Below are positions 1 through 59,237 of a stretch of DNA of 64,000 nt, piece by piece. Position 1 is the stretch's first letter; each line of letters starts with the position of its first letter. Source of the DNA: Ignavibacteriota bacterium (lineage in GTDB: Bacteria; Bacteroidota; Ignavibacteria; UBA10030). Position numbers and translations under genes: made by a program. The notes under the pieces are model-generated. The model was not told the origin of the DNA and ran no database searches. It worked only from the letters and a program-made list of their open reading frames with translations. The stretch covers positions 1,152,001-1,216,000 of the forward strand of contig OY969585.1 of assembly GCA_963701295.1 (NCBI GenBank). Direction: 5' to 3'.

Positions 1-651
1 CCGAGCATTTTGGATTCACAATTTTTTCTAGATTTGAAGAAACGAATGCCATTAGAATCAAAAGAATTGGTTATTCACAATATACAAGATTTGGAAAAGG
101 AATTTCAAACAAGCCATGATCCCACAATTGCAGCAAAACTTGCTAAATTTTACCTTTTTCAAGGTGAAAAACAAAAAGCGATACAATTGTTTGAGTGGAC
201 CACAAAGAAATTGCCGAGTCTTTCTCGCCCATGGCTCTATCTTGGCGATCTATATCAATCTTCTAACGAGGATGAAATGTTCCGATGTTATCAAAAAGCA
301 GCTTTTCTTGATAAATCAGATGTTTATCCCTTGCTACGATTAGGTCAATTCTATGAACAGAAAAATCGAATCAATGATGCAATACAATATTTCAAACGGT
401 CGATAAGAGCTTCGAATCTTCAATATGCTTTTCATTCAAGTAAAATTGCAGCCATGTATTGTTTAACTTGCAAGGATGAAAGATTGGTTATAAAAGATTA
501 CCTTGTGCCCAAAGGATTATTAACCTATTGTGCTCCATTATTTGATATTTCATCTGTTTATGATCGTCTTTCAGGTCTCTATACCAGGCAAGGAAACAAC
601 AAAAAAGCGGAAGAATATACGAGACTTAGTAAAGAATTGATATTTTATTGA
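1..651 (+). CDS. TPR-repeat protein (5'-partial; frame is open from base 1)
   Basis: TPR-like helical repeats (LAKFYLFQGEKQKAIQLFE, LGQFYEQKNRINDAIQYFKRSI); no stop between base 1 and the TTG at 10. Confidence 0.75.
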   Translation, partial: PSILDSQFFLDLKKRMPLESKELVIHNIQDLEKEFQTSHDPTIAAKLAKFYLFQGEKQKAIQLFEWTTKKLPSLSRPWLYLGDLYQSSNEDEMFRCYQKAAFLDKSDVYPLLRLGQFYEQKNRINDAIQYFKRSIRASNLQYAFHSSKIAAMYCLTCKDERLVIKDYLVPKGLLTYCAPLFDISSVYDRLSGLYTRQGNNKKAEEYTRLSKELIFY

Positions 652-682
652 CTAAAAGGATGATTTTTTTAGAAGAAAACAG

Positions 683-2758
683 ATGAAAAGCATTGTATTA
701 ATATTAAGGATTATTACACTATCTGTTTCTCTATTAAGTTGTAATAGAACGCCAAGCTTAGTTATTCCAAATGATTTTCAAGGGATATTACCGATAAAAG
801 AGTGGAAAGTCGTTGGTCCATTTGAATTTGATACCCTTAAACAGAATCCGCATAACACATATTACAACAAAGACTTAGAAAGATATGGCATCAGTGAGGA
901 ACACTTTTCAGAAAGTGATTTTGAAATATTGAATGATTATAAAATCAAAACTTTTAGTATCCAGACCTATAACTCCCCTGTAAACCTATTTGATCATGTT
1001 GACAAAAATCAGATAAATAATAAAAGTAATTTTTATCTATATACTTCTGTCTACAGTGAAGGTGAGGAAGAAGTTGTTTTCATTTTCGATGGCAGTTGTA
1101 ACTATAAAGTGTGGATAAATCAAAGACAGGTTTTGGAAGTTCTTAACAAAAAAAATACTCATAAAATTGGAGACCGTTTTATAAAAGTTAAACTGCAAAA
1201 AGGTAATAACTTTGTTTTCGCTAAAGTCAATAGAGGTAGCAATCAATTAGCGTGGGGGATATTAATGGTCGGTGCATCGTTAAAGGCTGCACAAAAAATA
1301 TATAAAGAAAATTATCTATCAGACTTTATAAGTGATCCCCTCATTTCAGATTCAATAAGCCTCTATTTAGGCCCGTATTCCAATGCCCGGATAAAGATCG
1401 TAGATAGTGATAATAATGTTAAGTTAAATGATAGTTGTTTCAATAAATATCAAAAAATCTTTTTTATTAAATGCGGCGGAATTCATGACGGACTTTACAG
1501 CAGTAAATTATTTCTTGAGGATGATTCTCTTGAAGAATTTATATATAGAGGTAATATATTCAAATTTATACAAGAATTGAAATTAAAGTCTCAACAATTA
1601 AAATGCGATAATTGTACAATGAATGATGTTAACGCTGCAATTGAGAGGCTAGATTTTTTGATAAATAAACTTGATGAAAGTTCCGAATCAGAAGTTAGAT
1701 ATTATCATAGCAACTTGATATACTATTCAATAAATTTGCATAATTTAATAGGTTATGTTAGAAAGAATAAGCATGATAGATTATATTGTGGTACTTCTCT
1801 AAAAACTTATTTTTCTGAGAAAGATAATGCTGTTTATCATTTTATGTTACACGTTAGTAAATGTTTAATAAATACGCCATCCCTGCCATTAATACTTTTT
1901 GTCCCATATTCACTTGTCGATGAAACTATGCCGAGGAGTTGGTATATAGGCACTTTAGATCAAATTGAGATGGACAGTAAGATGGCTGACGACTACGGTT
2001 TTGCGGTAGCTTGGTTATTTATGAGAGGAACCAAATATACTCCAATTAATGCAGTTGAAGAGGCTAAAAATGTAATTAAAAGAATTAAAAGGGATTATAA
2101 TTTAGATACAACAAAAATATATTTGATCGGAGAATGTGTAGGAGGCAAGAGAGCTTTGTTATTGGCAGAGAAATGTCCGGACCTTTTTTCTGGTATAGCA
2201 GTCAAAGAACCTGTAACAATGGGTGGAGACGAAATAGAAAAACCAATATATTTTGTGCAGAATCTATACAACATACCTACTTGCATATTCCATGGTATAT
2301 ACGATAATGAAGTTCCTATTGAGTGGTCAAGAAAGTTTGCATCCGATGCACAAAAAGTTGGTAAATTTATGAAAGTTGTAGAAACAGAAACAGGACATTT
2401 AAAGCTTTCGAGGGACGAAAGAAGAAATTCCTTCCTTTTTTTAGATAGTTTAAAGACCCATCATCAGGCAAAAAGAATCGATACTATTAAATATTGTACC
2501 TGCGATGTGGGATCCAGTTCTTTATACTGGATTGAAATTTGCAAAATAAAACCTCTTGAAAAGGCAGAAATCACAGCAACATATGATTCTTCAAGTCAAA
2601 ATATCCACGTTGACTGTAAAAATATATTGGAATTTAACGTGCTAACTAATTTGCTTGATTTAACAAAGGGGACTGATTTAACAATTTATGCAAATAATAT
2701 AATTTCCTATCGAGGAACGGTAAATAGAAACAAAGTAAATATTCTTTTAAAAGAGTGA
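683..2758 (+). CDS. Putative lipoprotein with C-terminal alpha/beta-hydrolase (esterase/peptidase-like) domain
   Basis: Lipobox LLSC; nucleophile elbow IYLIGECVGG, HGIYDNEVP and GH motifs. Confidence 0.7.
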   Translation: MKSIVLILRIITLSVSLLSCNRTPSLVIPNDFQGILPIKEWKVVGPFEFDTLKQNPHNTYYNKDLERYGISEEHFSESDFEILNDYKIKTFSIQTYNSPVNLFDHVDKNQINNKSNFYLYTSVYSEGEEEVVFIFDGSCNYKVWINQRQVLEVLNKKNTHKIGDRFIKVKLQKGNNFVFAKVNRGSNQLAWGILMVGASLKAAQKIYKENYLSDFISDPLISDSISLYLGPYSNARIKIVDSDNNVKLNDSCFNKYQKIFFIKCGGIHDGLYSSKLFLEDDSLEEFIYRGNIFKFIQELKLKSQQLKCDNCTMNDVNAAIERLDFLINKLDESSESEVRYYHSNLIYYSINLHNLIGYVRKNKHDRLYCGTSLKTYFSEKDNAVYHFMLHVSKCLINTPSLPLILFVPYSLVDETMPRSWYIGTLDQIEMDSKMADDYGFAVAWLFMRGTKYTPINAVEEAKNVIKRIKRDYNLDTTKIYLIGECVGGKRALLLAEKCPDLFSGIAVKEPVTMGGDEIEKPIYFVQNLYNIPTCIFHGIYDNEVPIEWSRKFASDAQKVGKFMKVVETETGHLKLSRDERRNSFLFLDSLKTHHQAKRIDTIKYCTCDVGSSSLYWIEICKIKPLEKAEITATYDSSSQNIHVDCKNILEFNVLTNLLDLTKGTDLTIYANNIISYRGTVNRNKVNILLKE

Positions 2759-2760
2759 GA

Positions 2761-2809
2761 AGATTCCCGAAGTTTTCCTATCGGTTCTCGTGAGAAACTT
2801 CGGGAATCT
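2761..2809. repeat. REP-like perfect 15-bp inverted repeat
   Basis: AGATTCCCGAAGTTT (2761-2775) / AAACTTCGGGAATCT (2795-2809) directly after the stop codon. Confidence 0.7.
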
Positions 2810-3010
2810 AACTAACCTGCCTTGCGTTTGATTGATCTCTCACGTACTTTGATTGCAGTTGTTTCACTCGTGGGGCAATTAGTGATACGATGAGGCGCCG
2901 TGGGGATTCCAATTCGAAGAGAAATTTTAAAGAGAAAAGATATTTTGCAGGGCAAATGAAATTTGTTGGGCTGCGATTACTGGTGACAATTCAACAAAGA
3001 TAAATATTTT

Positions 3011-4297
3011 ATGAAAATTAAACTTAGGAATTTAGTCCTGATAGCTTCCATTATTACCAGTACGAACCTCTCATTTGCTCAATGGGTGCAGACCAATGTT
3101 CCTCTTGGCGGAGCAGTTAATGGCATTGCAGTCAACGGCAAAAATATTTTTGTATGCACGGATTTTGGGATCTTTCTTTCGACTGACGATGGAACAAGTT
3201 GGAGTGCCACAAGTCAAGCAAATCTTGGGGCAAATGCAATCGTTGCCGAAGGAGAAAAATTATTCGTTGTGAGAAATGGGGTCAGTCTTTCAACTGACGG
3301 TGGTATTTCCTGGAATGCCGTAAACAATGGATTGCCTTCATATAGCGTCGTTTTCAAAATTGCTATCAGCGGTACAACTCTATTTGCAATGGTTTATGGT
3401 TCAATGATGATGATGGGCGGGTGGGGTATCTTTCGTTCAACTGACGATGGTGCACACTGGACCGCAGTGGGTTTAGGATATCTTAGTGTCTATACTATTG
3501 CAGCTTATTCTAACTCTGCAGGAGATACCGATATTTTTGCTGGGACAGACGGCGGACTGAACAATGGTTATCTCACACCAGGCGTGTTCCTTTCGACCGA
3601 TGATGGTATTTCGTGGGATTCGCTCGGGTTGGTAAATGTGAATGTTCGCGCTATTGCCGCCGTTCATAATGGATCGGGTGATTCAAGTATCTTTGCCGGA
3701 ACGACGAATGGAATTTTTCGTTCGACCAACGGAGGCTTAAGCTGGGACACCGTAAACACAGGAATACCAGACACAATCGTACGTGCTCTTGCCGTCAGCC
3801 CTAATGGGACAGGCGGCAACAATCTATTTGCCGGGACTGATAGCGGCGTCTTTCTTTCTACCAACAACGGCGATAAATGGACATCAGTTAATACTGGTTT
3901 CACAAACACAACTTGTGTGATGGTTTTTTCCGTCTCCGGCACGTATCTTTTTGCTGGGACTAATAACGGTGTCTGGAGACGACCGTTGTCGGAAATGATC
4001 ACAGAAGTAGAAAGGCTCTCGGCCGTTTTGCCGATGCATTTTAGTCTTGACCAGAATTATCCGAATCCATTTAATCCGGCAACGATTATTTCCTTTAGTC
4101 TTCCATCAAAATCTTTTGTTTCGTTGAAGGTATTTGATATTATAGGGAAAGAGGTAGCAACTATTGTATCGGAAGAAATGTCGGCAGGCAACCACTCGCG
4201 GCAATGGAATGCAGCAAATATATCAAGTGGAATTTATTTTTGTCAGATGCAAGCGGGTTCGTTTGTCGAAACAAAGAAACTCGTTTTGCTCAAATAG
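3011..4297 (+). CDS. Cassette 1: secreted BNR/Asp-box beta-propeller protein with T9SS C-terminal domain
   Basis: Signal peptide; repeated S-T-D/N-x-G-x-S/K-W Asp-boxes; C-terminal FSLDQNYPNPFNP...KKLVLLK. Confidence 0.9.
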   Translation: MKIKLRNLVLIASIITSTNLSFAQWVQTNVPLGGAVNGIAVNGKNIFVCTDFGIFLSTDDGTSWSATSQANLGANAIVAEGEKLFVVRNGVSLSTDGGISWNAVNNGLPSYSVVFKIAISGTTLFAMVYGSMMMMGGWGIFRSTDDGAHWTAVGLGYLSVYTIAAYSNSAGDTDIFAGTDGGLNNGYLTPGVFLSTDDGISWDSLGLVNVNVRAIAAVHNGSGDSSIFAGTTNGIFRSTNGGLSWDTVNTGIPDTIVRALAVSPNGTGGNNLFAGTDSGVFLSTNNGDKWTSVNTGFTNTTCVMVFSVSGTYLFAGTNNGVWRRPLSEMITEVERLSAVLPMHFSLDQNYPNPFNPATIISFSLPSKSFVSLKVFDIIGKEVATIVSEEMSAGNHSRQWNAANISSGIYFCQMQAGSFVETKKLVLLK

Positions 4298-4307
4298 AGC
4301 AATTGCA

Positions 4308-4489
4308 CCCTAACCAGGCGCTCCCGCCCAACAAGACGGCGGGCAAGCAAGCTAACGGTTGCCAGTTGGGTACGTAAATCATGGCGAGCATAGGTTTAGT
4401 GCAAAATTGAAAGTTATCAGCGTGAACTTGTTTCGTTTAGTACAATTTGAAAGTTTTCATTGCCGCAGCTTAGCCGCCATCCGTTAGGT
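4308..4489 (+). repeat. attC site 1 (25-nt hairpin insert in L'')
   Basis: CCCTAAC-CAGGCGCT[insert]CAAGCT ... GCAGCTTAGCCGCCATCC-GTTAGGT. Confidence 0.85.
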
Positions 4490-4540
4490 GGCATTGTGAC
4501 GGGCAGCGGTGCTGGATTCAATCAAAGGATACAATACATA

Positions 4541-5212
4541 ATGAATTCTAAACTACTAAGTATTACTCGTATCGTTAGTTTCATCATGACAATATATATT
4601 TGGCGGGTGGTGCAATTCGCAGAGTTTTCTCAACTCGCAGAGTACACTCTGACCATCGGACCAATTTTGTTTGTTTTTCCAGTTGTCTGGATCGGACGGA
4701 AGGCGGTCAACCTCAAACCGACTTTTGAGCGTGTTGCCTGGATTACGAGCTTTGTTCATATCGTCTTAATGGTTTTCTTTGGTGTATCGATCATCGAAGC
4801 CATCAGACTGTTTCAAATCTCGCGTGGCATCACAATACCATTACCTGTCGAAATTGGAACGGTACTCCTTTATCTTACCGGTGCGTGTTTGTCATTGACC
4901 GTGGTAAATCTCGCATTAAGCGGACTCGGAGCACCATTTGCTATTGCATTGAGCAAGCGTCTTGCAAATCGCTGGATGTATCGTTGGACGAGAAATCCGA
5001 TGGTTTTATGCTGTCTCGCCATGCTTCTATCGGCTGGCATTTATTTACAGTCTCTTTATTTTGTTTTGTGGGTTGTTTTACTTGTAACACCGGCGTGGAT
5101 TTACTTTTTGAAAGTGTATGAAGAGCGCGAGCTTGAAATCCGTTTCGGTGCATCATACTTGGATTACAAAACTAATACTTCTTTTCTCTGGCCAAGAATA
5201 CCGAGGAATTGA
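4541..5212 (+). CDS. Cassette 2: isoprenylcysteine carboxyl methyltransferase (ICMT/PEMT) family membrane protein
   Basis: Multiple TM helices; GLGAP, Y..TRNPM, EERELEIRFG..Y..Y motifs; ATG at 4541 chosen because the longer TTG start lies inside attC1. Confidence 0.8.
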   Translation: MNSKLLSITRIVSFIMTIYIWRVVQFAEFSQLAEYTLTIGPILFVFPVVWIGRKAVNLKPTFERVAWITSFVHIVLMVFFGVSIIEAIRLFQISRGITIPLPVEIGTVLLYLTGACLSLTVVNLALSGLGAPFAIALSKRLANRWMYRWTRNPMVLCCLAMLLSAGIYLQSLYFVLWVVLLVTPAWIYFLKVYEERELEIRFGASYLDYKTNTSFLWPRIPRN

Positions 5213-5234
5213 AATATAATTGTATAACAATGCC

Positions 5235-5454
5235 GCTTAACCAGGCGCTCCCGCCCAACAAGACGGCGGGCAAGCAAGCTGACGGAATGAGCTCATTGCA
5301 ATTAGCATGGCTGGTGGTGGGTTTAAGTTATTATAATTAACTTTTTTGTACCTCGTTGGTTGAGACAAATAAATATGGTTATCAGCATGAACTCGTTTCG
5401 TTTTGTGGTTAATTAAACTTGGTCACGCGGCAGCTTAGCCGCCATCCGTTAGGC
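5235..5454 (+). repeat. attC site 2 (25-nt hairpin insert in L'')
   Basis: GCTTAAC-CAGGCGCT[insert]CAAGCTGAC ... GCAGCTTAGCCGCCATCC-GTTAGGC. Confidence 0.85.
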
Positions 5455-5501
5455 GGCTTCCATAAACTATGGCAGTCAATTAATGAAAAGGGGATCAGAT
5501 A

Positions 5502-7562
5502 ATGAAATTCTTGCTAAGATATTTTGAGAAATTCATATTGTATTTGCAAACCGCCTTTGGGGTGAAACATATTCACACAGTAATCATCCTTTTTCTATTG
5601 TTGATTAACCTAGTGCTGATAGTGGTGGTTTTCCTTCTTTCGAATTCACTCGCCTCTATCTTAACGAATATGGCACTAAATTTCCTACAATTCTTCTTTG
5701 TTGTAGTCCTTTTAGGTGTCATCTTGGGGATCACATCTAATTACTTGTACGACAAAGCTATAGCCGCACTAAATAATCCTATCGGAAGAGCTATAAGCGA
5801 AAGCAGATTGATTAATTACTTCCTACCTGACAAAGAAAGTGAGAAGGAGAGAAGAACAAATTTAACAGTTGAGCGTTTGCCCAGCATGAAAGGCGAAGTT
5901 TGCATATTCGCCATTGCAGCAACAAGCTACCTTCCCAAGAAAGATGATGCAACACGTTTCTCCCAATTATTCATCAGCAAGTTAATTAACAAAGAAATTA
6001 ATTTGCGACTATTATTACTCAATCCCTACAGCCAAGCTTCGAAGTTTAGATATGCGCGAGAAGAAGGTATTGATGTGGATGTTATTTGTGAAAGAGAGAG
6101 GAACGAAATGAGATTTGAGAGATCGGCGCTCTATGGTGACATTGTGAACACTATGGATAAAGTCAAAGAGCTAAGAACTAAAGGGGCCAACATAGAATGC
6201 AGACTTACCAACTTCGAGCCTGCAATATCAATGATGTACACCAGTGACTTTGTTTATATTGATATACTTTCCTTGGGAAGGTTAGATGAAACGACTAAGT
6301 TCACAAAGCAACGAACTACTTTGCCAATCACCGAATTCTCCTCAGATTCTGCGTATTATCAAGTCGCCAAAAGCCATTTTGAATACCATTGGAAATATGG
6401 AATCACACCAGATGAATTTGGTTACTATAAACCCGCTTTACAAGAAAGCTTCTTTGGTTTCTCCTATACGGGCTATAGGTTGATCAAACAGCACGATTCT
6501 TGGATTTCTATTGATCCAGTAGTTGGATGCAACGCGGGTTGTAAATACTGTGTTCTTCAAACAACATTTCGGAATGATATTAAACCGAAAGTCTACGCAA
6601 GTCCGGAGACCATTGGTGATCACCTTCGAGAAAGCAAATTCTATCATGAAGACGAAGTCCTTTGCCTATTCAATTACACTGATGCTCTACTAACCGAAAA
6701 CAAAGAGCGTTTGATAAGTTGTCTTGAGACCCTTAAGGAAAAGCAATTTCGAAATTGGGTATGCATTCCCACAAAACACCCATTTGATGTGAAATTCGCT
6801 CACAAAATAATAGACTCGTATCATCATAACAAGTTGATCTTTCTCATTTCCCTTTCGGGCATGCCAGAAGGATATGAGCCGAGTATTAAATCAGCAGAGA
6901 TTGTTGCCACTATGAAAATGTTGAAAGAACTTAAGATACCACTCATTCACTATTGGAGGCCTGTTACCAAATTAAATTCCAGTGATCAGCATATTGAAAG
7001 TATTTTGGACAAAGTCGATGAGTACGCAAATTGTTCTGTGATTGTTGGCTTAAAGGCTAGCGATGCTCTCAATGACTACTATGTAAATGAGGGGCTTATA
7101 AGTAAGAGTGAATTAAAGGTTCATGGAGATTATTTACCAGAAGGATTCATGAAGAAGGTCAAAAATATTCTGAATCAGAAAGGCAAGGTATATCCTATCT
7201 ATCTTCACGCATCCTGTGCCGTAAGCAAGATAACAAGTCAGCCTGACTATAATGGAACTATGCTCAGAAACGATGTGTGTTCATTGTCTGCTACAGGAGC
7301 CTCATTATGTATTTCAGACCAAGAATCGATATGCCAGAACTTCTTAAAACGCACACAGCAAGAATTTGACAAGACCAAATTCTATGAGATTATTAGAGAG
7401 ATTCTTCCCAGAATGGATATGAAGATTGATGGCAATACGATCGAACTATTGGATCCTGTTTATCAAGAAGATCTTATTTATCTCGTACATCGACTCAGGC
7501 AACCAGTAGTGGCGAAACAGATATTGTACACCAATCAGTATGTTGGTTCAATACTTGCCTAG
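5502..7562 (+). CDS. Cassette 3: 2TM + DUF5919-like domain + radical SAM fusion protein
   Basis: Two N-terminal hydrophobic helices; LRLLLLNPYS..REEG middle domain; SIDPVVGCNAGCKYC (CxxxCxxC) plus extra C-terminal cysteines. Confidence 0.8.
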   Translation: MKFLLRYFEKFILYLQTAFGVKHIHTVIILFLLLINLVLIVVVFLLSNSLASILTNMALNFLQFFFVVVLLGVILGITSNYLYDKAIAALNNPIGRAISESRLINYFLPDKESEKERRTNLTVERLPSMKGEVCIFAIAATSYLPKKDDATRFSQLFISKLINKEINLRLLLLNPYSQASKFRYAREEGIDVDVICERERNEMRFERSALYGDIVNTMDKVKELRTKGANIECRLTNFEPAISMMYTSDFVYIDILSLGRLDETTKFTKQRTTLPITEFSSDSAYYQVAKSHFEYHWKYGITPDEFGYYKPALQESFFGFSYTGYRLIKQHDSWISIDPVVGCNAGCKYCVLQTTFRNDIKPKVYASPETIGDHLRESKFYHEDEVLCLFNYTDALLTENKERLISCLETLKEKQFRNWVCIPTKHPFDVKFAHKIIDSYHHNKLIFLISLSGMPEGYEPSIKSAEIVATMKMLKELKIPLIHYWRPVTKLNSSDQHIESILDKVDEYANCSVIVGLKASDALNDYYVNEGLISKSELKVHGDYLPEGFMKKVKNILNQKGKVYPIYLHASCAVSKITSQPDYNGTMLRNDVCSLSATGASLCISDQESICQNFLKRTQQEFDKTKFYEIIREILPRMDMKIDGNTIELLDPVYQEDLIYLVHRLRQPVVAKQILYTNQYVGSILA

Positions 7563-7604
7563 CGAATTGATGGAAAGACAAACTATGTGAATAAGCAAGT
7601 AACC

Positions 7605-7764
7605 ACCTAACAAATCGTTCAAGCTGACCGTATGAGCGTTAGTACCGATAAGCATGGCTTGCATAGGTTTTGGTTCTTAATAATAAACTTATCAGCATGA
7701 ACTTGTTTCGTTTTGTATATTTTGAAAGTTATCAACGTGGCAACTTAGTTGCCATCCGTTAGGC
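7605..7764 (+). repeat. attC site 3
   Basis: ACCTAAC-AAATCGTTCAAGCTGAC ... GCAACTTAGTTGCCATCC-GTTAGGC. Confidence 0.85.
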
Positions 7765-7793
7765 GGGCAAAAAACAATTACAAATACAGGAGA

Positions 7794-8564
7794 ATGAAAA
7801 TGTATATGCAAAGAAAAAGAATGCTATTCCTTTATTTAATCTTGATGTCAGTCACGATTAACTTACAATCGCAAGATACATCATCAGAACGAAATTCTTT
7901 GAAAGCAGGTGCTTGGGCATTGCAGTTTGGGATTTCCAGTAACTTTACGCTCACATCATTTCAAGGAAGTAATATAGCGTTCAAATATCAATTATCCGAC
8001 AAGAGCGCTCTTCGTGGAGGAATAACAATTAACGGTAGCACTAATGATGGAACCACTTCAAATTCTGGATCAATCGATGATACCAGCTATGGTACTGCTC
8101 CGGGAAGCAGCTCAACGGAATCCGCAACTGCCTCTTTTGTTCTCCAATACTTATGGTATATGAATCCAAACGGCCCCGTACATTTCTACACTGGACTTGG
8201 TCCATTAGTTTCATACAGCTATTCCAAGTATTCCACAAATAATCCTTATTCATCTACTGTATATGATAGCGGAAGTTATCGCGGGTATTGAAATCGAAAT
8301 ATAAGTACTTCAAACTCTACCCAATGGGGATTTGGTGTATCGTGTGTTATTGGCGTCGAATGGTTTGCTTGCCAATGGTTATCCTTGCATGCAGATTACA
8401 ATGAAAGCATCCAATATCGATGGGGTTCGAATTCATCGAATCAAGAATGGTCTTCTTCGACCAGTCCAAATTTTATACCTTCTCAAACTAATAATTCTGG
8501 AACAAGCAAAGGATGGTCTTTAAGCAGTTCTAGCGTTGCATTCGGGCTAAATATATATTTGTAA
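7794..8564 (+). pseudogene. Cassette 4: outer-membrane beta-barrel protein interrupted by an in-frame TGA at 8289-8291
   Basis: Signal peptide after AGGAGA; the same frame continues 90 codons past the TGA (QWGFGVSCVIGVEWF...VAFGLNIYL*), ending 8 nt before attC4. Confidence 0.8.
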
Positions 8565-8572
8565 ATTTGCCC

Positions 8573-8789
8573 GCCTAACCAGGCGCTCAAGCTCTGCTTG
8601 TCCAGAAGAATGAATCACAGCCGGAGGCCTGAGAATGTCATTGCACGAAGTGCAATACAAATTTATTGGATGCAAAATTCATGGCGAGCAAAGGTTGAGT
8701 ACAAATTTGAAAGTTATCAGCATGAACTTGTTTCGTTTAGTGTATTTTGAAAATTATCAGCGCCGCAGCTTAGTTGCCAATCGTTAGGC
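8573..8789 (+). repeat. attC site 4 (about 73-nt insert)
   Basis: GCCTAAC-CAGGCGCTCAAGCT ... GCAGCTTAGTTGCCAATC-GTTAGGC. Confidence 0.85.
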
Positions 8790-8830
8790 AGCAACACAAA
8801 GTATCTTACTAATATAACTAGGAGAAAATA

Positions 8831-9142
8831 ATGACAAACAATCTTACCCCACAGGAAGAAAAGCAACTTCTTGAGATGCTAAAAAACCAGCCGCGAGATA
8901 TTCGTTCTATCAATATTACTGCAAATCTTTTTCTGGTATTTGGTGGTTGTTTTATAGTTGGCACGGCGTTTTATTTACTCAAACACTTTACGGATAATGT
9001 AGCATATTTTGTAGGTCTACCAAATTTCGTTGGAGGGATGATATTGATCGTTAGTTATATTTTGCTTTCGAGGAGAGTAATCCGAATGAAACAGTTAAAC
9101 TCAATATTATCAAAGCTGCATAAAATGATTATTGCTGCCTAA
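8831..9142 (+). CDS. Cassette 5: small 2-TM hypothetical protein
   Basis: AGGAG RBS; stop codon is the TAA of the attC R'' box. Confidence 0.8.
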   Translation: MTNNLTPQEEKQLLEMLKNQPRDIRSINITANLFLVFGGCFIVGTAFYLLKHFTDNVAYFVGLPNFVGGMILIVSYILLSRRVIRMKQLNSILSKLHKMIIAA

Positions 9143-9290
9143 CCAGGCGCTCAAGCTGACGGAATGAGCTGGGTGCGAAATTCATGGCGAGCATAGGTTA
9201 GTACAAGATTGAGAGAACCAGTATGAACTTGTTTCGTTGGTTGCATTACGAAACTTATAAACGCCGCAGCTTAGTGCCTGTCCGTTAGGG
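9137..9290 (+). repeat. attC site 5 (shortest, uninterrupted copy)
   Basis: GCCTAAC-CAGGCGCTCAAGCTGACGG ... CCGCAGCTTAGTGCCTGTCC-GTTAGGG; unpaired C in CTCAAG versus CTTAG matches the L-box extrahelical base. Confidence 0.9.
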
Positions 9291-9313
9291 CTATAATATT
9301 AAAGGAGTTCAAA

Positions 9314-9871
9314 ATGGATAAACATGAATTCTTAAAACAGCAATATATTTCATTACGAGAGGAAATTAAGGAAACTAAGGCACGTATTTTTAAAACCTTA
9401 GGTTTCGGTATTATTGCTGTTCCTGCTGCTAATTTTCTAGGAGAATCCTATCACATTGATGTTGTTATTCTATCGTTACCATTACTTGTCATTGTTCTTG
9501 CATTTCTATATTTATCAGAGAATAATGCTAAGATGAGATGTGGTAGATTTATAAGAATCCATATTGAAAGTTTATTCAAAGATATCCCTGGTTGGGAAAC
9601 CTGGCTTGAAAATCCTGAGGAGGAATATCAAACAAGAATTGTTGATATATATCTTGATGCTTGTTTTTATATCCTATTCTTCATTTACTATGTTGGTTCT
9701 GTTTTTCTTGAAACAAGATTTTCAATTCAAAATTTTCATCTTTTGATTACTGCTATGATACTTGGCTTTTACGTAGCAATTGGTATTTGGTTCTTAATAC
9801 ACTTAATTACACATATTCAAGTCTCTACGACAATTAAAATGGATAAGGACAAATTACAACATAAGCCCTAA
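9314..9871 (+). CDS. Cassette 6: 4-TM hypothetical membrane protein
   Basis: AAGGAG RBS; QYISLREEI helix, TM pair, RCGRFIR..IE, GWE, second TM pair; stop in R''. Confidence 0.8.
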   Translation: MDKHEFLKQQYISLREEIKETKARIFKTLGFGIIAVPAANFLGESYHIDVVILSLPLLVIVLAFLYLSENNAKMRCGRFIRIHIESLFKDIPGWETWLENPEEEYQTRIVDIYLDACFYILFFIYYVGSVFLETRFSIQNFHLLITAMILGFYVAIGIWFLIHLITHIQVSTTIKMDKDKLQHKP

Positions 9872-10082
9872 CCAAGTGCTCAAGCTCGGCTTGTCCAGAA
9901 GAATGCATCACAGCCGGAGGCCTGAGAATGTCATTGCACGAAGTGCAATACAAATTTATTGGATGCAAAATTCATGGCGAGCAAAGGTTGAGTACAAATT
10001 TGAAAGTTTTCAGCATAAACTCGTTTCGTTTTCAGCAACTTGAAATTTATCAGCGCCGCAGCTTAGCGCCGATCCGTTATAC
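9866..10082 (+). repeat. attC site 6 (same about 73-nt insert as attC4)
   Basis: CCCTAAC-CAAGTGCTCAAGCT ... GCAGCTTAGCGCCGATCC-GTTATAC. Confidence 0.85.
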
Positions 10083-10152
10083 CGCTTGCGTTTTAAGGTA
10101 AGTTGGCCGAATTTAGCAACACTATTAATAAAATGAAATAAGGAGATAAACC

Positions 10153-10527
10153 ATGAATATTTTCTTATGGGTTCTTCAAATTCTTCTTGCCTTGCATACC
10201 ATCATGGGTGCAGTTTGGAAGTTTTCCAATTCGGAACAAACCGTACCTTCCTTGAGTACAATTCCTCATGGATTTTGGCTGACGTTGAGCGTCATTGAGC
10301 TGCTTTGTAGTTTGGGTTTGATCCTCCCTGCACTAAATAAGCGACTAGGCGTCCTGGTGCCGGTCGCGGCGGTTTGTATTGCAGCTGAAATGCTGCTCTT
10401 TTCCGGATTGCATATTTACTCCGGTGACACGAATTACAACCAAATGATATATTGGCTCGTCGTGGCTGCCATATGTTCGTTTATTGCTTACGGTAGATTT
10501 GTGTTGAAACCTCTTAGACGTCCTTAA
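10153..10527 (+). CDS. Cassette 7: DoxX-family membrane protein
   Basis: MNIFLWVLQILLA...IELLCSLGLILP...AYGRF pattern; AGGAGA RBS. Confidence 0.85.
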   Translation: MNIFLWVLQILLALHTIMGAVWKFSNSEQTVPSLSTIPHGFWLTLSVIELLCSLGLILPALNKRLGVLVPVAAVCIAAEMLLFSGLHIYSGDTNYNQMIYWLVVAAICSFIAYGRFVLKPLRRP

Positions 10528-10573
10528 ATAAGAAGTCAATCAATATGAGTTATGCAAAAAAATGTCGCAAGCG

Positions 10574-10761
10574 GTATAACCAGGCGCTCAAGCTGACCGG
10601 ATGAGCGCCCGCCCAAAGATAAACATGGCGGGTAAATGGGCACGTTAAGCATGGCGCGTAGAGGTTCAGATGTTTAATAATAAACTTTTCAGCATGAACT
10701 TGTTTCGTATAGTACATATTGAAAGGTATCAGTGGCGCAGCTTATGCGCCATCTGTTAGGG
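10574..10761 (+). repeat. attC site 7 (internal CCCGCC/GGCGGG hairpin insert)
   Basis: GTATAAC-CAGGCGCTCAAGCTGAC ... GCAGCTTATGCGCCATCT-GTTAGGG. Confidence 0.85.
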
Positions 10762-10786
10762 CGCATTCAAAATAAAGGAGAATTAA

Positions 10787-11203
10787 ATAAAAAGTAGAAA
10801 AAAATATATTCCACTCATATTCATTATTCCAGCACTAATACGCTCAATTAATCATCCTCCTCAATTGACATCGGGTTCTATAGGATTATTTGTAGTTATT
10901 CTTCTTTTAGTTGGTTTGTTCGTTTATTTAGAAAAAAGTATGGAGAAAAGAATTCGTAGGTTCGATAGAATCAAAGATCATCGATTCCTCTATATATTAA
11001 GTTTTAGTTTACTTTGCGGCTTACCTCTATCATTGGTATTAACTTGGTCATGGGAGTCTCAAATAAAATTATTGTACGCCATTCTTTTTATTGTATTGCC
11101 GACAGTCGTAATTTTTGGATGGACTGGATTGATGGATTGGAAAGAATGTCAGAAAAAATATCTCGAATTGAAATATTCACAACACGCAAATAATGCGACC
11201 TAA
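10787..11203 (+). CDS. Cassette 8: hypothetical membrane protein (apparent ATA start codon)
   Basis: AAGGAG 6 nt upstream of an in-frame ATA at 10787; frame open to the TAA in R''; first canonical alternative start is TTG 10865. Confidence 0.65.
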   Translation: MKSRKKYIPLIFIIPALIRSINHPPQLTSGSIGLFVVILLLVGLFVYLEKSMEKRIRRFDRIKDHRFLYILSFSLLCGLPLSLVLTWSWESQIKLLYAILFIVLPTVVIFGWTGLMDWKECQKKYLELKYSQHANNAT

Positions 11204-11258
11204 CCAGGCGCTCCCCGAAAAAAGAATTCGGGGCAGGCAAGCTGTCCGAATGAGCATT
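11198..11258 (+). repeat. attC site 8, left half only (25-nt hairpin insert; truncated)
   Basis: ACCTAAC-CAGGCGCT[insert]CAAGCTGTCCGAATGAGC, then similarity is lost; no L'/R' found. Confidence 0.75.
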
Positions 11259-11414
11259 GACTCGCCTCTTTTTTCTTATTTATTATAAGAGTGAATTGAT
11301 GGAATGCGGGAGATGTAATAGTCTATCTCACCGATTGTCGTTCGTTGATCATGATTATTCTTCAGGAGAAGATCAAATGAAAGTGAAAAAAGAAAATGGT
11401 TCTCAGGTGAAACT

Positions 11415-12305
11415 ATGAACAAAGGAGTTTGGTACGCTATCGGAGCTTATGGAAGCTGGGGATTATTACCAATATATTGGAAATTGCTCCATCATGTTCC
11501 TGCATTGCAATTAATCAGCCATCGCATTATATGGTCTTTTCTTGCTCTCATCGTAATTATTCTTTGTATCCGTCAGTGGGCGGGTTTCCGTTCAAAAGTG
11601 TTTTCTTGGAATGTTCTTCGCGTGTACTGTTTAGCAGCGGTGCTGATCGGTGTCAACTGGCTGACGTATGTGTGGGCGGTCAATGCAGGTCATATTGTTG
11701 AATCCAGTCTCGGATATTTCATCAATCCTTTGCTCAGTGTATCTATAGGAGTGTTCTTCCTTCATGAGCATCTGCGCCCGAGGCAATGGATCTCTATCGC
11801 ATTAGCCGCGGCAGGGGTTCTCTTCCTTGCGATAGTTCATGGTTCTATCCCGTGGATCGCTCTCACGCTTGCTTTTTCATTTGCGTTCTACGGCCTCGTA
11901 AAAAAAACAGCGCCGCTCGGTTCGCTGTACGGCTTGACACTGGAAACTGGGATTCTACTACTTCCTGCATTGTTCTTTCTGTTTATTTCTGATATGAACG
12001 GTAGGGGAGCGTTTCTCCACACAGGCACAATGGCTGATATCCTCTTAGCTGGCGCGGGAATCGTCACAACCATCCCGCTGCTGATGTTTGCATCGGCAGC
12101 CCGGCGTATTCCGCTTTCGCTGATAGGTATTCTACAATATATCTCCCCGACGCTGCAGTTTCTTATCGGTGTGTTGATTTATCATGAGTCGTTCACGTTC
12201 ATTCAGTTTATCGGATACGCCATTGTCTGGCTCGCATTGATTCTTTTTGGAGCGGAAAGTTTCTTTGCTTATCGAACACAGATTGCTGTTATGGAACCTG
12301 AATAA
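11415..12305 (+). CDS. rarD: EamA/DMT-family transporter RarD
   Basis: WGLLPIYWK, SLGYFINPLL, GILQYISPTLQF motifs. Confidence 0.92.
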   Translation: MNKGVWYAIGAYGSWGLLPIYWKLLHHVPALQLISHRIIWSFLALIVIILCIRQWAGFRSKVFSWNVLRVYCLAAVLIGVNWLTYVWAVNAGHIVESSLGYFINPLLSVSIGVFFLHEHLRPRQWISIALAAAGVLFLAIVHGSIPWIALTLAFSFAFYGLVKKTAPLGSLYGLTLETGILLLPALFFLFISDMNGRGAFLHTGTMADILLAGAGIVTTIPLLMFASAARRIPLSLIGILQYISPTLQFLIGVLIYHESFTFIQFIGYAIVWLALILFGAESFFAYRTQIAVMEPE

Positions 12306-12442
12306 AAGTATTTATCTTGAAATTTGAACGAGTAAAAAGTAAATTAAGTACCATAACTTCTGAAGTGCTTTAATTTTAGATTGACCGATAATAAGTCAAA
12401 TGGTAGAATCATTCCAATTTTTTCTAAAATGAAAGGAGATAA

Positions 12443-12979
12443 ATGACTGTGAGTGAAAATCTTCAATATCCGATTGGCAAATACAAGAAGCCGGAACACA
12501 TCGACGCGGGACAGAGAGAACGTTTCATTCAGGAAATTGCCGCAGTGCCGAAGGAACTCCGCAAAGCGGTTGAAGGATTGAATGAGTTACAGCTCAACAC
12601 ACCGTATCGCGAAGGCGGCTGGACAGTCCGGCAAGTCGTCCATCATCTTCCCGACAGCCATATAAATGCATACGTACGGCTGAAACTCGCACTGACGGAA
12701 CATGAGCCGGATATTAAGACGTACAAAGAAGCATTATGGGCTGAGCTTCCCGATGTGAAGACGGTTCCGATTGAAATCTCATTGGCTCTTCTTGATGCGC
12801 TCCATGCGCGATTGATTGCCTGCCTGCGGGGCCTTGATAGTGATGCATTTGAAAAGAAATTTCGACATCCTGCAATGGGCCTTATGTCCCTGAACGAACA
12901 ACTGGCGCTCTATGCGTGGCATGGGAAGCATCATGTCGCTCATATCACAAGCCTGCGGCAGCGTATGGGATGGAAATGA
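12443..12979 (+). CDS. bstA: YfiT/BstA-family (DinB superfamily) bacillithiol transferase-like protein
   Basis: LQYPIG, TPYREGGWTVRQVVHHLPDSH, YAWHGKHHVAHI. Confidence 0.85.
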   Translation: MTVSENLQYPIGKYKKPEHIDAGQRERFIQEIAAVPKELRKAVEGLNELQLNTPYREGGWTVRQVVHHLPDSHINAYVRLKLALTEHEPDIKTYKEALWAELPDVKTVPIEISLALLDALHARLIACLRGLDSDAFEKKFRHPAMGLMSLNEQLALYAWHGKHHVAHITSLRQRMGWK

Positions 12980-13006
12980 TTATGGTTTTGAAATTCATTT
13001 TGGGAA

Positions 13007-13447
13007 ATGGCAATGACTGAATTACCGATTACCTATCGCGGTGTTGTCCATCCATGGCAGTGCGATCTGATGGGGCATATGAATGTCGTGTGGTATGTAA
13101 GTAAGTTTGACGACGCAGCGTGGCAGCTTTTTGCGATGATGGGGCTGGATGTCAGCTATTTTAACCGCACGCACTGCGGTGTCGCCGCACTTCAGCAAAA
13201 CATTACATACAAGGCAGAAATCCATCCCGGAAGCACAGTCACCATTCGTTCGGGCATTCTTGAACTCAAAGAGAAAACCGTCCGGTTCGTCCACGAAATG
13301 CGCAATGATGCAACCGGAGAAATCGCCGCTGTGATGGAGTTGACAGCCGTGCATTTCAACATGAAAAAAAGAAAATCATGCCCATTTCCTGCGGCAACGG
13401 CAAAACGCAGTAGGAATCTGATTGTGCAGTACGATGCAGAAACTTAA
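13007..13447 (+). CDS. Acyl-CoA thioesterase (hot-dog fold, 4HBT-like)
   Basis: VHPWQCDLMGHMNV..Y...FD motif. Confidence 0.85.
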   Translation: MAMTELPITYRGVVHPWQCDLMGHMNVVWYVSKFDDAAWQLFAMMGLDVSYFNRTHCGVAALQQNITYKAEIHPGSTVTIRSGILELKEKTVRFVHEMRNDATGEIAAVMELTAVHFNMKKRKSCPFPAATAKRSRNLIVQYDAET

Positions 13448-13633
13448 ACGTTAAAAAAGAAAGCTGGTGCTCACTCTGCCTTTTAAGACTATATAATCTT
13501 CATTTCCATATTTCTCGGCAAGCCGACGTGGAATGCAATTTGAGTTAACAGAATTGTTTAACAAGCCAGATGAGCTCGACATCTTCTAAGTGTGGTGTGA
13601 TAATATATATCGCACAAAAAGAGGGAGTACGTT

Positions 13634-14293
13634 ATGAATTACATGAAGATATTTCTGTATTCACAATTGATCATTTGTTTAGCTCTTCTCAGCTTTTTTG
13701 ATCTCCTTGTCATCGCAAATGGTATTTTTAAAATCGTTTTGAAAACGAATCCCCCAATTGATAAAGACACTAAGATTCTTGGCTCGTCAAATACATCAAA
13801 CAGTAATTCAGAAGTTCATAATTCAACCTTAATATCTATTCTTCTGAAGTATTTGGCAATAGATGCTAACCAATTATCGCAACAAAAAAATAGTATAATT
13901 CAAATTCGCCTTTTCTATGCGGCAATCCTAACGGGGCTTGTGTCATATCTATTTAGCAGTAATAATCCCTTGATCGCATTGTTTATTTTGTTTTTAATTC
14001 TAATAATGTATTTATTAGAAGTACACTTTAATGACTTAATAAATAGGAGTGAGATAGGTTACTTTATCATGCGCAAAGCAGTTGAACGGTTAATTAACTT
14101 GAAGCCGAAAAATAATAAATGGTATATTCTAAATTTTAAATCTCTTCTTAAACAGCAGGAGAATGCTAGTAATCATAGATGGCGGAGAAAATTCTTCTCT
14201 GCTTGTAATCCAAATATCGAGCAAATAATATTCTACTGTATTCCTTGGCTTGGGATAAGTTTATATCTAATTTATTTAATAATAATTAAATGA
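13634..14293 (+). CDS. AT-rich hypothetical membrane protein (probable former cassette)
   Basis: 219-aa ORF with several TM helices; GAGGGAG RBS; followed by an attC remnant. Confidence 0.7.
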   Translation: MNYMKIFLYSQLIICLALLSFFDLLVIANGIFKIVLKTNPPIDKDTKILGSSNTSNSNSEVHNSTLISILLKYLAIDANQLSQQKNSIIQIRLFYAAILTGLVSYLFSSNNPLIALFILFLILIMYLLEVHFNDLINRSEIGYFIMRKAVERLINLKPKNNKWYILNFKSLLKQQENASNHRWRRKFFSACNPNIEQIIFYCIPWLGISLYLIYLIIIK

Positions 14294-14360
14294 CTATCAA
14301 TTGATAGGTCTCTCGGTTGGAGATATACAATCACTAAGTTTGAGTGTATTTAAATAAAAA

Positions 14361-14530
14361 TCGGCAGTCCGAACAAGCGTCGGTGTGTTAACCATGGCTT
14401 ACAAACGTGCACTACATAATTGTGAGCCAGAAGCTTATGAGCCTTTTGCCTCAAAAAATGATGTGAATGAACTTGTTTCTGTTAGTACATTATTTGTAAT
14501 TTGTCAGCGGCGCAAGCAACTCAAGCTGAG
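14361..14530 (+). repeat. Degenerate attC remnant
   Basis: CCGAACAAGCG start; internal CATGGCTT, ATGAACTTGTTTC-TGTTAGTACA and TCAGCGGCGCA match the interiors of attC1-7. Confidence 0.6.
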
Positions 14531-14537
14531 TAATACT

Positions 14538-15296
14538 ATGGATTCTTCGATATCAAGAAAGCTTCGCAGGGCTTTTCGAAACCTCCCTAATCTTTGGAGT
14601 GGCTACAATATCTACGTAAATCGCGACAAGCTTGACCTGATCAAATTGACGTTTAGCAAGCTCAATCCCAAAGCAAGGTCGTTTGCAGATCTCGGAGGTG
14701 TCTGGAAGGTGAATGCGGCTTACTGCCTCTACACCATCAAGAACTTTCAAATCGAAAAGGGAATCTTGGTCGACACGGACTTTCCACCAACGCTTGCCGC
14801 GAAACTGCAACGATACACGAATCTTCAAGTTCTGCAAGGTGATTTTGCAGATCGATCGGTTGTGGACAGGATCGGCCAGGTTGACGTTATCTTCTTCTTC
14901 GATGTTCTTTTGCATCAGGCAAATCCAGATTGGGACCAGATCATTGAGCGCTATGCAAGCAGCTGCTCCTGTTTCATAATTTATAATCAACAGTTTGTTC
15001 GAGGCGAGGAGACCGTCCGCCTTACAAACTTGCCGTTCGAAAAATACATCGAATTAGTTTCGGATCATGGGAAGGATCTGACCCATTACATTTACGAACA
15101 CAGGGAGGAGATTCATCCGAAGTATAGAAAACCGTGGAAGGATATTCACAATATCACGCAATGGGGTATCACTGACCGAGGACTGCGGCAGACCATGGCA
15201 CGATTAGGTTTCAGGGAAGTTTTTTACATGAACTACGGAATGTTTATTAACTTGCCTGCATTCGAGAATCATGCATTTGTTTTTATGCGAGGATGA
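14538..15296 (+). CDS. Class I SAM-dependent methyltransferase-like protein
   Basis: FADLGGVW motif I, LVD, GDF, FDVLLH; ATG 14538 chosen because the upstream extension is attC remnant. Confidence 0.75.
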   Translation: MDSSISRKLRRAFRNLPNLWSGYNIYVNRDKLDLIKLTFSKLNPKARSFADLGGVWKVNAAYCLYTIKNFQIEKGILVDTDFPPTLAAKLQRYTNLQVLQGDFADRSVVDRIGQVDVIFFFDVLLHQANPDWDQIIERYASSCSCFIIYNQQFVRGEETVRLTNLPFEKYIELVSDHGKDLTHYIYEHREEIHPKYRKPWKDIHNITQWGITDRGLRQTMARLGFREVFYMNYGMFINLPAFENHAFVFMRG

Positions 15297-15330
15297 CCGT
15301 TCGACCCTCTCGAGTCATTGCAGGCTTGCG

Positions 15331-15441
15331 GTCTATCCAGGCGCTCACTCGGTTTGTCTATGGAAAATATGAATATGGACTGCTTTGTGAAAGAATCTCA
15401 TCGTTCATTGAAGTTACGAGGCAGGCTCGGCATCGTTAGGT
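15331..15441 (+). repeat. Degenerate attC remnant
   Basis: CTATCCAGGCGCTCA (versus CTAACCAGGCGCTCA) ... GGCATC-GTTAGGT. Confidence 0.55.
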
Positions 15442-15543
15442 GAGCGCCATCGGAGTATCATGAAACATTGCATGGTATCATCTCGTATAAGAAATCGTTC
15501 CTATAAATCAATTCTCTCCATAACCACATAAGGAGCAATACAA

Positions 15544-15972
15544 ATGGAAAAGCATATTTCACTCGTGGCAATTCTGAATATCGTGTACCGCTCGCTGGCA
15601 ATCATCGGAGCGATTGTTCTCTTCTGCATTGCGTATGGATTCAGCTTTCTTATGAGGTTCATTTCGCATTGCAGCCACAATGAGATACAAGAGATCCCGG
15701 CGGAAGTATTTGGCATCGTACAGATTGTTCTTACAGTTATTGGTATTCTCGTTTTAATTTTTGCTGTCGTCGGAATCATCGGCGCTATCGGCGTAATCAG
15801 GAAAAAGGAATGGGGACGTATTACCTTGCTTATTGTATCATTCTTCAGCTTGCTCAGCATTCCGCTTGGCACTATTCTTGGAGTGTATAGCATTTGGGTC
15901 CTTTTGAACGACGAGACGATTCGGCTCTTTAATCCGGTTCCCAACACTTCGGCCAAGAAAACAGCAAAATAA
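15544..15972 (+). CDS. Hypothetical membrane protein
   Basis: AAGGAG RBS; hydrophobic helices; WGR, IPLGTILGVYSIWVL. Confidence 0.8.
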   Translation: MEKHISLVAILNIVYRSLAIIGAIVLFCIAYGFSFLMRFISHCSHNEIQEIPAEVFGIVQIVLTVIGILVLIFAVVGIIGAIGVIRKKEWGRITLLIVSFFSLLSIPLGTILGVYSIWVLLNDETIRLFNPVPNTSAKKTAK

Positions 15973-15991
15973 TTTCCGGATATTTTCTTTT

Positions 15992-16291
15992 ATGAAAATT
16001 CTGGCACTTGAAAAAGAAATCCCCGGTATAACCGATAACCGGTTTACTCCTGAGATTCTTCGCAAGGAATCTGCGCGGGCGTGGGAACTGCAACAGGAAG
16101 GAATAATCCGCGAATTATATTTCCGCTATGATCGTCAGGAAGCGGTACTCATACTCGAATGTAAGAACGCTGAAGAAGCTCGATCGGTGCTTGCATCGCT
16201 GCCGTTAGTCAAAGAAGGCCTGATCACATTTGACATTATCCCTTTGACAGCATACCCGGGGTTTGCCAGGCTTTTTGAAAAGAAGAAATAA
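15992..16291 (+). CDS. Muconolactone isomerase-like dimeric alpha/beta-barrel protein
   Basis: E...AWEL...GIIRELY, AVLILEC, LPLVKEGLITFDIIPL..YP. Confidence 0.75.
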   Translation: MKILALEKEIPGITDNRFTPEILRKESARAWELQQEGIIRELYFRYDRQEAVLILECKNAEEARSVLASLPLVKEGLITFDIIPLTAYPGFARLFEKKK

Positions 16292-16503
16292 CAAGGCTGT
16301 AAAAAATAGGCAAGAGAACGGTGTTCGTCAATGAATGCTGCTTGATGCAATAAAACATTTTTTTATACATAGCCCTGCGTGCATGTGTTCAGCTATCGGC
16401 TTCGGGTCGACACCTGTCGATCAGGATACTCTAGACCTGAAAAAGGATGCAGGTGCATTTCACTTATCGTGAGTGTTCTTCTCAATCATCGCTATTTTTC
16501 TTG

Positions 16504-17130: not shown

Positions 17131-17150
17131 TCACCCCATCCTTTCTTTCT

Positions 17151-19915: not shown

Positions 19916-19969
19916 TCTCTCGAATCCTTTTCGCTTCCTCTTGCTTCTTTTCTTGCATGATGCCTTGTG

Positions 19970-59153: not shown

Positions 59154-59237
59154 CAAGCCCTAGTAAAATTACAATACGCGGCTCGTGATTCATAGAGATG
59201 GAACGGAGCCGCGTAATAATTAAGAAACAAATGCGTG

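Follow-up and report, generated by a model that had tools for sequence, protein, structure and literature searches.

The window analyzed here is the whole of a 64,000-nucleotide stretch (G000:C1:1152001-1216000) of the Ignavibacteriota genome G000, which is a single 3.64-Mb contig and 99.3% complete. Near the left end of the window, from 2965 to 11255, eight open reading frames (ORFs), all in one orientation, alternate with seven complete repeats (154-220 bp) and one left half-site, as listed below. The array is a group of clustered attC sites without an integron-integrase (CALIN) and belongs to a sedentary chromosomal integron, an ordinary and known kind of object. The first-pass annotation of the sequence had proposed that the repeats are attC sites of such an integron, and this was supported. 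It had counted eight cassettes with 154-220 bp spacers, of which the eight ORFs and seven whole sites stand, but the eighth is only a half-site, cut at 11255. Its remark that three genes stop on the TAA of R'' was borne out, with the reading of three cassette genes ending at 9142, 9871, and 11203, and the common end sequences and interior motifs are present as it described them. The values of pfold come from fold prediction of the bottom strand.

1-2758, + strand: right part of a low-GC (33%) block in an island, with the end of an O-antigen-ligase/TPR gene and a hydrolase-like gene; non-cassette
2821-2938, + strand: promoter-like leader, TTGCGT-17 nt-TACTTT at 2822-2850, with four diverged copies elsewhere in the genome; not attI; candidate array promoter
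2965-2971, + strand: left end of cassette 1, G|TTGGGC, with no attC right half or attI upstream; 11/15 nt complementary to its own R''
3011-4297, + strand: cassette 1 gene, BNR/Vps10 beta-propeller protein with a type IX secretion system (T9SS)-type C-terminal domain
4308-4489, + strand: attC1, 182 bp; 25-bp hairpin in L'' (4323-4347); arms mismatched; pfold 0.26
4541-5212, + strand: cassette 2 gene, PEMT/isoprenylcysteine-methyltransferase-like membrane protein
5235-5454, + strand: attC2, 220 bp; L'' hairpin at 5250-5274; chimeric, left type GGCG, right type CCGC; pfold 0.02
5502-7562, + strand: cassette 3 gene, 686 aa, hydrophobic N-terminus and radical-SAM-like domain (below the Pfam cut-off)
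7605-7764, + strand: attC3, 160 bp, degenerate; pfold about 0
7794-8564, + strand: cassette 4 gene, likely outer-membrane protein with no family match; nonsense codon at 8289-8291
8573-8789, + strand: attC4, 217 bp; chimeric, left GGCG, right TTGC; variable region with a long insert; pfold 0.011
8831-9142, + strand: cassette 5 gene, small membrane protein, stop in R''; weak PycTM match (E 0.004)
9137-9290, + strand: attC5, 154 bp; the sole window site with the recombinogenic hairpin as best fold; pfold 0.82
9314-9871, + strand: cassette 6 gene, membrane protein with no family match, stop in R''
9866-10082, + strand: attC6, 217 bp; 91% identity to attC4; pfold 1e-4
10153-10527, + strand: cassette 7 gene, DoxX family
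10574-10761, + strand: attC7, 188 bp; L' altered, local hairpin competes; pfold about 0
10865-11203, + strand: cassette 8 gene, membrane protein, start uncertain, stop in R''; has a paralogue (61%) at the distal end of the array linked to intI
11198-11255, + strand: left half of attC8; 25-bp L'' hairpin at 11213-11237; cut at the island boundary
11256-11282, + strand: right copy of a 27-bp direct repeat, whose left counterpart lies outside the window at G000:C1:1145073 and matches it at 23/27; a promoter-like site ahead of rarD overlaps it
11415-12305, + strand: rarD (EamA), conserved chromosomal flank

A profile built from the seven complete window sites gave 163 matches in the genome at E<1e-3, with 156 in 10 clusters and seven single, and nothing below E 0.17 on the reversed genome. 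The repeats are therefore far above chance. AAC and GTT, from the R'' and R' cores (RYYYAAC and GTTRRRY), were found in all seven complete window sites and in the genome logos (n = 109). The first-pass annotation had called the family homogeneous, which holds for the ends and parts of the interior but not elsewhere, since ungapped identity among whole or near-whole window repeats is ~61-91%. Weight matrices located 148 right ends in the genome, 123 of them paired with a left end. The layout across the genome is R'' - 5 nt - L'' ... L' - 8 nt - R', with short, unpaired central spacers of 5 and 8 nt that stay under the 10-nt upper bound of PMC7370490. Position 16 is C on the top strand (extrahelical G on the bottom) in 118 of 120 genome sites, a count partly imposed by the search pattern, while position 23 is A (extrahelical T on the bottom) in 113 of 120, which the pattern did not impose. 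Both agree with the extrahelical G, then T 6-8 nt beyond, described for attC bottom strands (PMC2727003; here and below, comparisons with published systems draw on parts of the cited sources). The second extrahelical base is absent in two of the seven complete window sites, and an L'' hairpin is present in two.

Pairing within and between sites pointed the same way. The four bases beside the L box covary, with arms fully complementary in 72 of 120 sites compared to 30.7 in 5000 shuffles (maximum 48). Integration of circles leaves an R'' that is complementary to the left end of its own unit, and this was observed: over 111 intervals, R'' and its flank matched the unit's own left end at 5.07 of 8 positions beyond the core and the downstream site at 2.79, with a shuffled mean of 2.80 (maximum 3.26; p 2e-12). 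Among the window cassettes the match to the own left end was 10-15 of 15 and was better than the downstream match in all seven that could be tested. Bottom strands lie on the leading-strand template for 123 of 148 sites (dnaA is at 976782 and the skew turns near 2.70 Mb), and the main exception is the array near 225 kb. The first-pass annotation had named failure of the bottom strands to fold as grounds for rejecting attC sites. This applies in part, and within the window only, as pfold exceeds 0.1 in two of seven window sites and in 75 of 103 sites elsewhere in the genome. Since most sites elsewhere fold well, the poor folding suggests decay of the window array rather than misidentification.

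The sites are unusually long. Genome-wide, attC sites (n = 123) have a median of 159 bp and fall into classes of about 152-160, 182-199, and 213-239 bp; 117 of the 123 are at least 150 bp. Three of the seven window sites and 13 of the 123 genome-wide exceed 200 bp, the default maximum attC size of IntegronFinder; one of these 13 (312 bp) is probably mis-paired. At 154-220 bp, the window sites lie outside the published ranges of 55-141 nt (PMC7370490) and of 56-141 bp in mobile integrons, with mostly 120-129 bp in sedentary ones (PMC5371416), so the earlier statement that they are longer than most described attC sites holds. The long attC sites of Treponema are 115-132 bp (PMC3607928). The published 55-141 bp is a descriptive range, not a functional rule.

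The L'-R' spacer is also distinctive, being 8 nt in 118 of 127 GTT-bearing anchors (165 anchors in total). A sequence-independent finder, which detected no sites in shuffled loci, gave an 8-nt spacer in 85 of 88 sites at 13 loci of the genus. At 80 intI loci of other taxa it detected 26 sites. Nineteen of these have a spacer of 5-7 nt and a length of 59-129 bp, and the other seven, all in two Bacteroidota metagenome-assembled genomes (MAGs), have an 8-nt spacer and a length of 152-195 bp. In 18 of the 19 non-Bacteroidota sites the spacer is 5-6 nt. Because some sites at five loci of other genera escaped this generic finder, its counts are too low. The matched sites of 155, 195, and 230 bp would be natural substrates for questions about the limit on attC length and the effect of an 8-nt spacer on integrase recruitment.

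The attC family was found in all 15 other genomes of the genus that form the comparison set, and intI in 12 of them. Its right-end pattern is present in 39 of 151 genomes of the order, with up to 203 copies, and the named records that bear the family are Bacteroidota MAGs only. These MAGs, together with the T9SS-type tails, make the "Ignavibacteria-like" label of the first-pass annotation plausible. Integrons of Ignavibacteria have already been listed, namely two In0 in Ignavibacterium album and one complete single-attC integron in Melioribacter roseus, with no large arrays in the parts of that source consulted (PMC9024848). No description of long attC sites in Bacteroidota or Ignavibacteria, or of this family, was found in the literature, coverage of which was incomplete. 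The family belongs to an uncultured lineage from which hardly any cassettes appear in published surveys. G128, from a different taxonomic family in the order, has two intI genes that flank ~230 kb (G128:C1:3654297-3883522) with runs of sites on opposite strands, and that genome has 166 exact right-end pattern matches (100 listed); the 203 of G093 are on one strand. The 25-bp GC hairpins within L'' are of two different kinds, with CAAG or CAGG at the end, and were found at an identical point (4323-4347, 5250-5274, and 11213-11237), interrupting the box in three of the eight window sites when the half-site is included. A dispersed REP (repetitive extragenic palindromic) family was considered for these hairpins and rejected, as only 12 copies occur genome-wide, 10 of them inside attC, with one weak Y1 transposase match.

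As the first-pass annotation had stated, no tyrosine recombinase is present in the window, and none lies near it either. The array has more than two attC sites and no adjacent intI. It is not a complete integron, since the only intact intI found by the intI search lies at G000:C1:3566706, ~1.2 Mb away round the chromosome, and no attI match is near the array. Of the two possibilities offered earlier, a CALIN or the tail of a larger array, the first stands and the second was rejected because the nearest upstream family match is 110 kb away. CALINs are defined by at least two attC sites without a nearby intI, and half of the genomes that have one encode intI elsewhere (PMC4889954). The window array is alike in its co-oriented attC sites and an intI elsewhere in the genome, but differs in lying in an island bounded by direct repeats, in its truncated last attC with no neighbouring insertion sequence (IS), and in having six sister arrays that keep attI.

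The intact intI, at 3566706-3567665, is divergent from one of the 10 arrays over which ~160 family sites are spread in G000. Its product scores 453 bits against TIGR02249, over the cut-off, and its end-to-end alignment with VchIntIA (PDB 2A3V; E 4e-86) includes the IntI-specific segment and the catalytic motifs. Genome-wide, the IntI motifs and insertion, the presence across the lineage, and the strand bias are those of a sedentary chromosomal integron. A LexA search gave no match over the cut-off and, therefore, SOS control is not claimed.

An attI profile had eight matches at E<1e-3 in G000 and none in the reversed genome. One match is beside intI, five near-identical matches and one shorter match head arrays without intI, and one is decayed. 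The seven attI-headed arrays are at G000:C1:224172, 1796973, 2464821, 2834104, 3172046, 3446563, and 3566442. Several of the attI sites keep a promoter-like TTGCGT/TTGCAT-17-TAGATT, and the one at 2464821 is adjoined by an N-terminal stub of intI. Complementarity of the first cassette's R'' with the bases after the attI crossover was 13-15 of 15 at four attI sites, three of them orphan, and 9 at a fifth. Arrays that lie 0.7-2.2 Mb from each other share whole cassettes (289, 313, and 1822 bp) at 100% identity. The genus showed the same pattern, with 19 attI-like matches in 10 of the 15 other genomes. For 12 that are away from intI, no full intI was found within 1-1.5 kb upstream, and co-oriented attC sites follow 11; one of these 12 has only 7 bp of contig upstream and one, in G006, has a 74-aa intI stub.

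These data suggest that one intI is likely the source of integrase for about ten scattered arrays, of which six start with an attI that has no neighbouring integrase, on the premise that the integrase is active. We lean, by a modest amount, towards a distributed integron in this genus, in which one integrase would serve intI-less platforms that keep attI and a cassette promoter. Cassettes would then enter and be expressed at seven or more chromosomal places simultaneously, by way of an attC that is specific to the lineage and has a body of 150-240 bp and a spacer of 8 nt, while attI-less arrays would drop out and turn chimeric, and surveys would file the platforms as dead CALINs. IntegronFinder does not detect attI outside class 1 (PMC9024848), so orphan attI sites would be missed by surveys. 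In the literature, covered incompletely, no account was found of several attI-headed arrays that share one intI; the supplements of the Xanthomonas and attG preprints cited below may bear on this. Arrays spread over a chromosome are already known (PMC7370490; 10.1101/2025.06.18.660453), and mobilization in trans has been proposed (PMC9668308).

Upstream of attI there are two palindromic repeats of R-like and L-like boxes, possibly extra integrase-binding sites. An isolated 45-aa C-terminal piece of intI, with 98% protein identity, lies at G000:C1:581744-581878, upstream of an apparent tRNA gene end; the tyrosine-recombinase fragments at 2497718 and elsewhere were considered as IntI and, apart from this piece, rejected. 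An IS110-family element of ~1387 bp (L046:431-1432 and 10 other places in G000) is present in nine identical and two variant copies. All copies are inserted at one base of attC R''; the element is a candidate RNA-guided, attC-targeting recombinase. IS1111-attC elements (cited in PMC11187229) likewise insert at one attC position, and no copy of the G000 element is in the window.

The window array differs from the attI-headed arrays in the state of its sites. Matched stem arms were found in none of seven window sites compared to 72 of 113 elsewhere (p 0.001), and median pfold was 0.011 in the window and 0.39 elsewhere (p 0.02). Arms were matched in 69 of 98 sites no more than 45 kb behind an attI and in three of 22 sites without attI (p 1e-6); these p values are overstated because sites within one array are not independent. 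In attC2 and in attC4, a left half of one arm type is joined to a right half of a different type. Such chimeras cannot arise by integrase crossover in R', which suggests homologous recombination in the conserved interior. In addition, gene 4 has a nonsense codon where its homologues have tryptophan. The window array is thus likely decaying, with attC5 as its best-preserved site. CALINs in this genome fall into two distinguishable classes, attI-headed with intact sites and shared cassettes, and attI-less with mismatched sites, so that a single genome is enough to test where CALINs originate and whether they are alive.

The array lies at the right-hand end of an 18.2-kb island between a TonB-domain gene and rarD. 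A 27-bp direct repeat (23/27 identical) bounds the island and is present as a single copy at an empty site in G004, where 210 bp separate the TonB-domain gene from rarD. Eleven of the 15 relatives proved to have rarD, with no attC site near it at any of the 11 loci; three of these contigs end within ~3.5 kb upstream of the gene or give little flank. The island consists of a 33%-GC block (thioredoxin-like, C39 peptidase, ABC ATPase, Yip1, O-antigen-ligase/TPR, and hydrolase genes), the leader, and the array, which runs from G|TTGGGC (2965) to a half attC that stops exactly at the right repeat. A tyrosine recombinase was not found inside (serine recombinases were not searched as a family), so the island is not a recognizable integrative island in spite of its repeat.

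We consider it probable that this array, with neither an integrase nor an attI of its own, was built by an integrase acting from elsewhere and is now decaying; the activity of the integrase and excision of the cassettes are taken from sequence. IntI acting in trans would have seeded the array at a secondary GTT (the attG route), here or in the donor of the island, and the leader at 2821-2938 would drive the first cassettes. Arrival of the island or a later deletion may have cut the last attC (attC8). Recombination between conserved attC interiors would have made the chimeric sites, as a result of which excision would now be poor for most cassettes. At the left end of cassette 1, a secondary insertion point of attG type is proposed because no attC right half or attI lies upstream of 2965, and it is only weakly suggested.

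Several observations weigh against this reading. The left end of cassette 1 matches its own R'' at 11 of 15 positions and the downstream site at 10, and this narrow difference makes the secondary site a weak proposal. No recombinase was found in the island (one ORF was unscanned and serine recombinases were not searched as a family), so this reading offers no mechanism for its insertion. Five of the seven window sites have pfold <0.1, folding z-scores are modest (-0.2 to -3.9), and the top strand exceeds the bottom strand in stability by a mean of 1.9 kcal/mol; Vibrio attC sites likewise have the more stable top strand (PMC5371416). None of the window cassettes recurs in identical form in another array of the genome. 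Finally, no family attC flanks the DoxX homologues of three genomes or a cassette 4 homologue in G111 and, therefore, the cassette 4 and DoxX genes also occur outside arrays.

Alternatively, the array could be the remnant of a complete integron from which an intI-attI platform near 2900 was deleted. Loss of intI from a retained array is common in G000, as seen in the stub at attI 2464821 and the 45-aa piece at 581744, occurs in a relative (the stub in G006), and is one published route to CALINs (PMC8618304, PMC4889954). We consider this unlikely here because neither an attI profile match nor any trace of intI was found upstream of 2965, whereas six other intI-less arrays kept attI, and because the upstream DNA is instead the leader, none of whose four other genome copies heads an array. 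Another possible explanation, a shade less likely again, is a passive fragment of a large array that was moved by rearrangement or transformation, with chance breakpoints and no integrase step at the locus. The cut inside attC at the right end, the lack of any recombinase found in the island, and a share of mismatched sites as high as that at the distal ends of other arrays would fit such a fragment, but its left end falls on GTT, the expected cassette start, no IS110 copy is near the array, and no repeated element of IS size is present in the upstream part of the island. That the repeats are instead a non-coding RNA, REP, or miniature transposon family between genes is highly improbable: conserved interiors, small GC hairpins in some sites, and several bottom strands that do not favor the attC fold would suit it, but Rfam covariance models gave no match at E up to 1 in window 1-20000, the sites are co-oriented in arrays, one of which is headed by intI and attI, target duplications are absent at site ends, nine identical IS110 copies sit at the same R'' base, and the intI, the cassette logic of end complementarity, and the covariation of the arms already contradict it.

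The integron of Vibrio cholerae (VchIntIA and the V. cholerae repeat, VCR; PMC2727003, PMC5371416) shares the homogeneous attC sites, G16, a long variable region, the bottom strand on the leading template, the more stable top strand, and a homologous IntI. It differs in attC length (120-129 bp, compared to a G000 median of 159 bp and up to ~240 bp), in spacers (5 and 5 nt, compared to 5 and 8), and in having one array rather than ~160 sites over 10 arrays with several attI. The Xanthomonas integrons (bioRxiv 10.1101/2025.06.18.660453) share a genus-wide ancestral platform, frequent loss of intI, arrays at other loci, and proposed mobilization in trans. They are described with one intI locus and CALINs at conserved loci, with attI at CALINs not reported in the parts consulted, whereas the window array is at a lineage-specific locus and G000 has near-identical orphan attI sites. 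Insertion at secondary attG sites, described along with SALINs (bioRxiv 10.1101/2022.09.11.507474), shares the start at GTT (GWT consensus) with no attI or attC and a promoter-like site upstream; the window array has eight cassettes, not one, and has lost the 3' half of its target, so that an attG event cannot be proven.

The cassettes themselves show signs of mobility: cassette 4 occurs beside different neighbours, G004 has an empty site, and identical cassettes are found in distant G000 arrays. Homologues of cassette 4 with 64-69% protein identity lie between attC sites, among different neighbours, in G096 and G128; the attC in G128 is much shorter, with the same right end. Intact copies of cassette 4 that are ~98% identical were found in three sequencing runs of one study. 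Paralogues of cassette 1 elsewhere in the genome reach 52% identity over long stretches, several within other arrays. An anti-phage role was rejected, since PADLOC gave only two weak matches among the eight proteins. The cassette 3 protein had only 11 homologues in the length range searched, two of which are labelled as proteins of Hodarchaeota and Lokiarchaeota MAGs (53-57% identity), and this may possibly reflect a cross-domain cassette or a binning error.

Perfect contig fragments from one run (X1) cover the attC1/cassette 2 and attC2/cassette 3 junctions and give limited support to the assembly. Joints among short contigs of the sequencing runs were caused by the repeat family and were not used. 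Among the listed runs with array sequence there was no RNA run, and all shares were small.

The low-GC block of the island (L044:11459-18651 and window 683-2758) looks like a gene cluster for the export or modification of peptides; when its source was sought by protein search in 251 genomes of the class, one distant match to the hydrolase (24%) was obtained besides G000. The window also holds other traces of the family. Positions 14380-14514 contain an attC interior fragment that overlaps the start of the ORF at 14385-15296, and 15326-15440 an attC-like but divergent site, in which R'' reads TATC and R' reads GTTAGGT. A decayed second platform occupies 58255-59400, with the promoter region found upstream of intI and a degenerate attI (58255-58450), followed by one cassette gene at ~58585-59153, an R'' at ~59238 that matches the bases after attI, and a broken attC.

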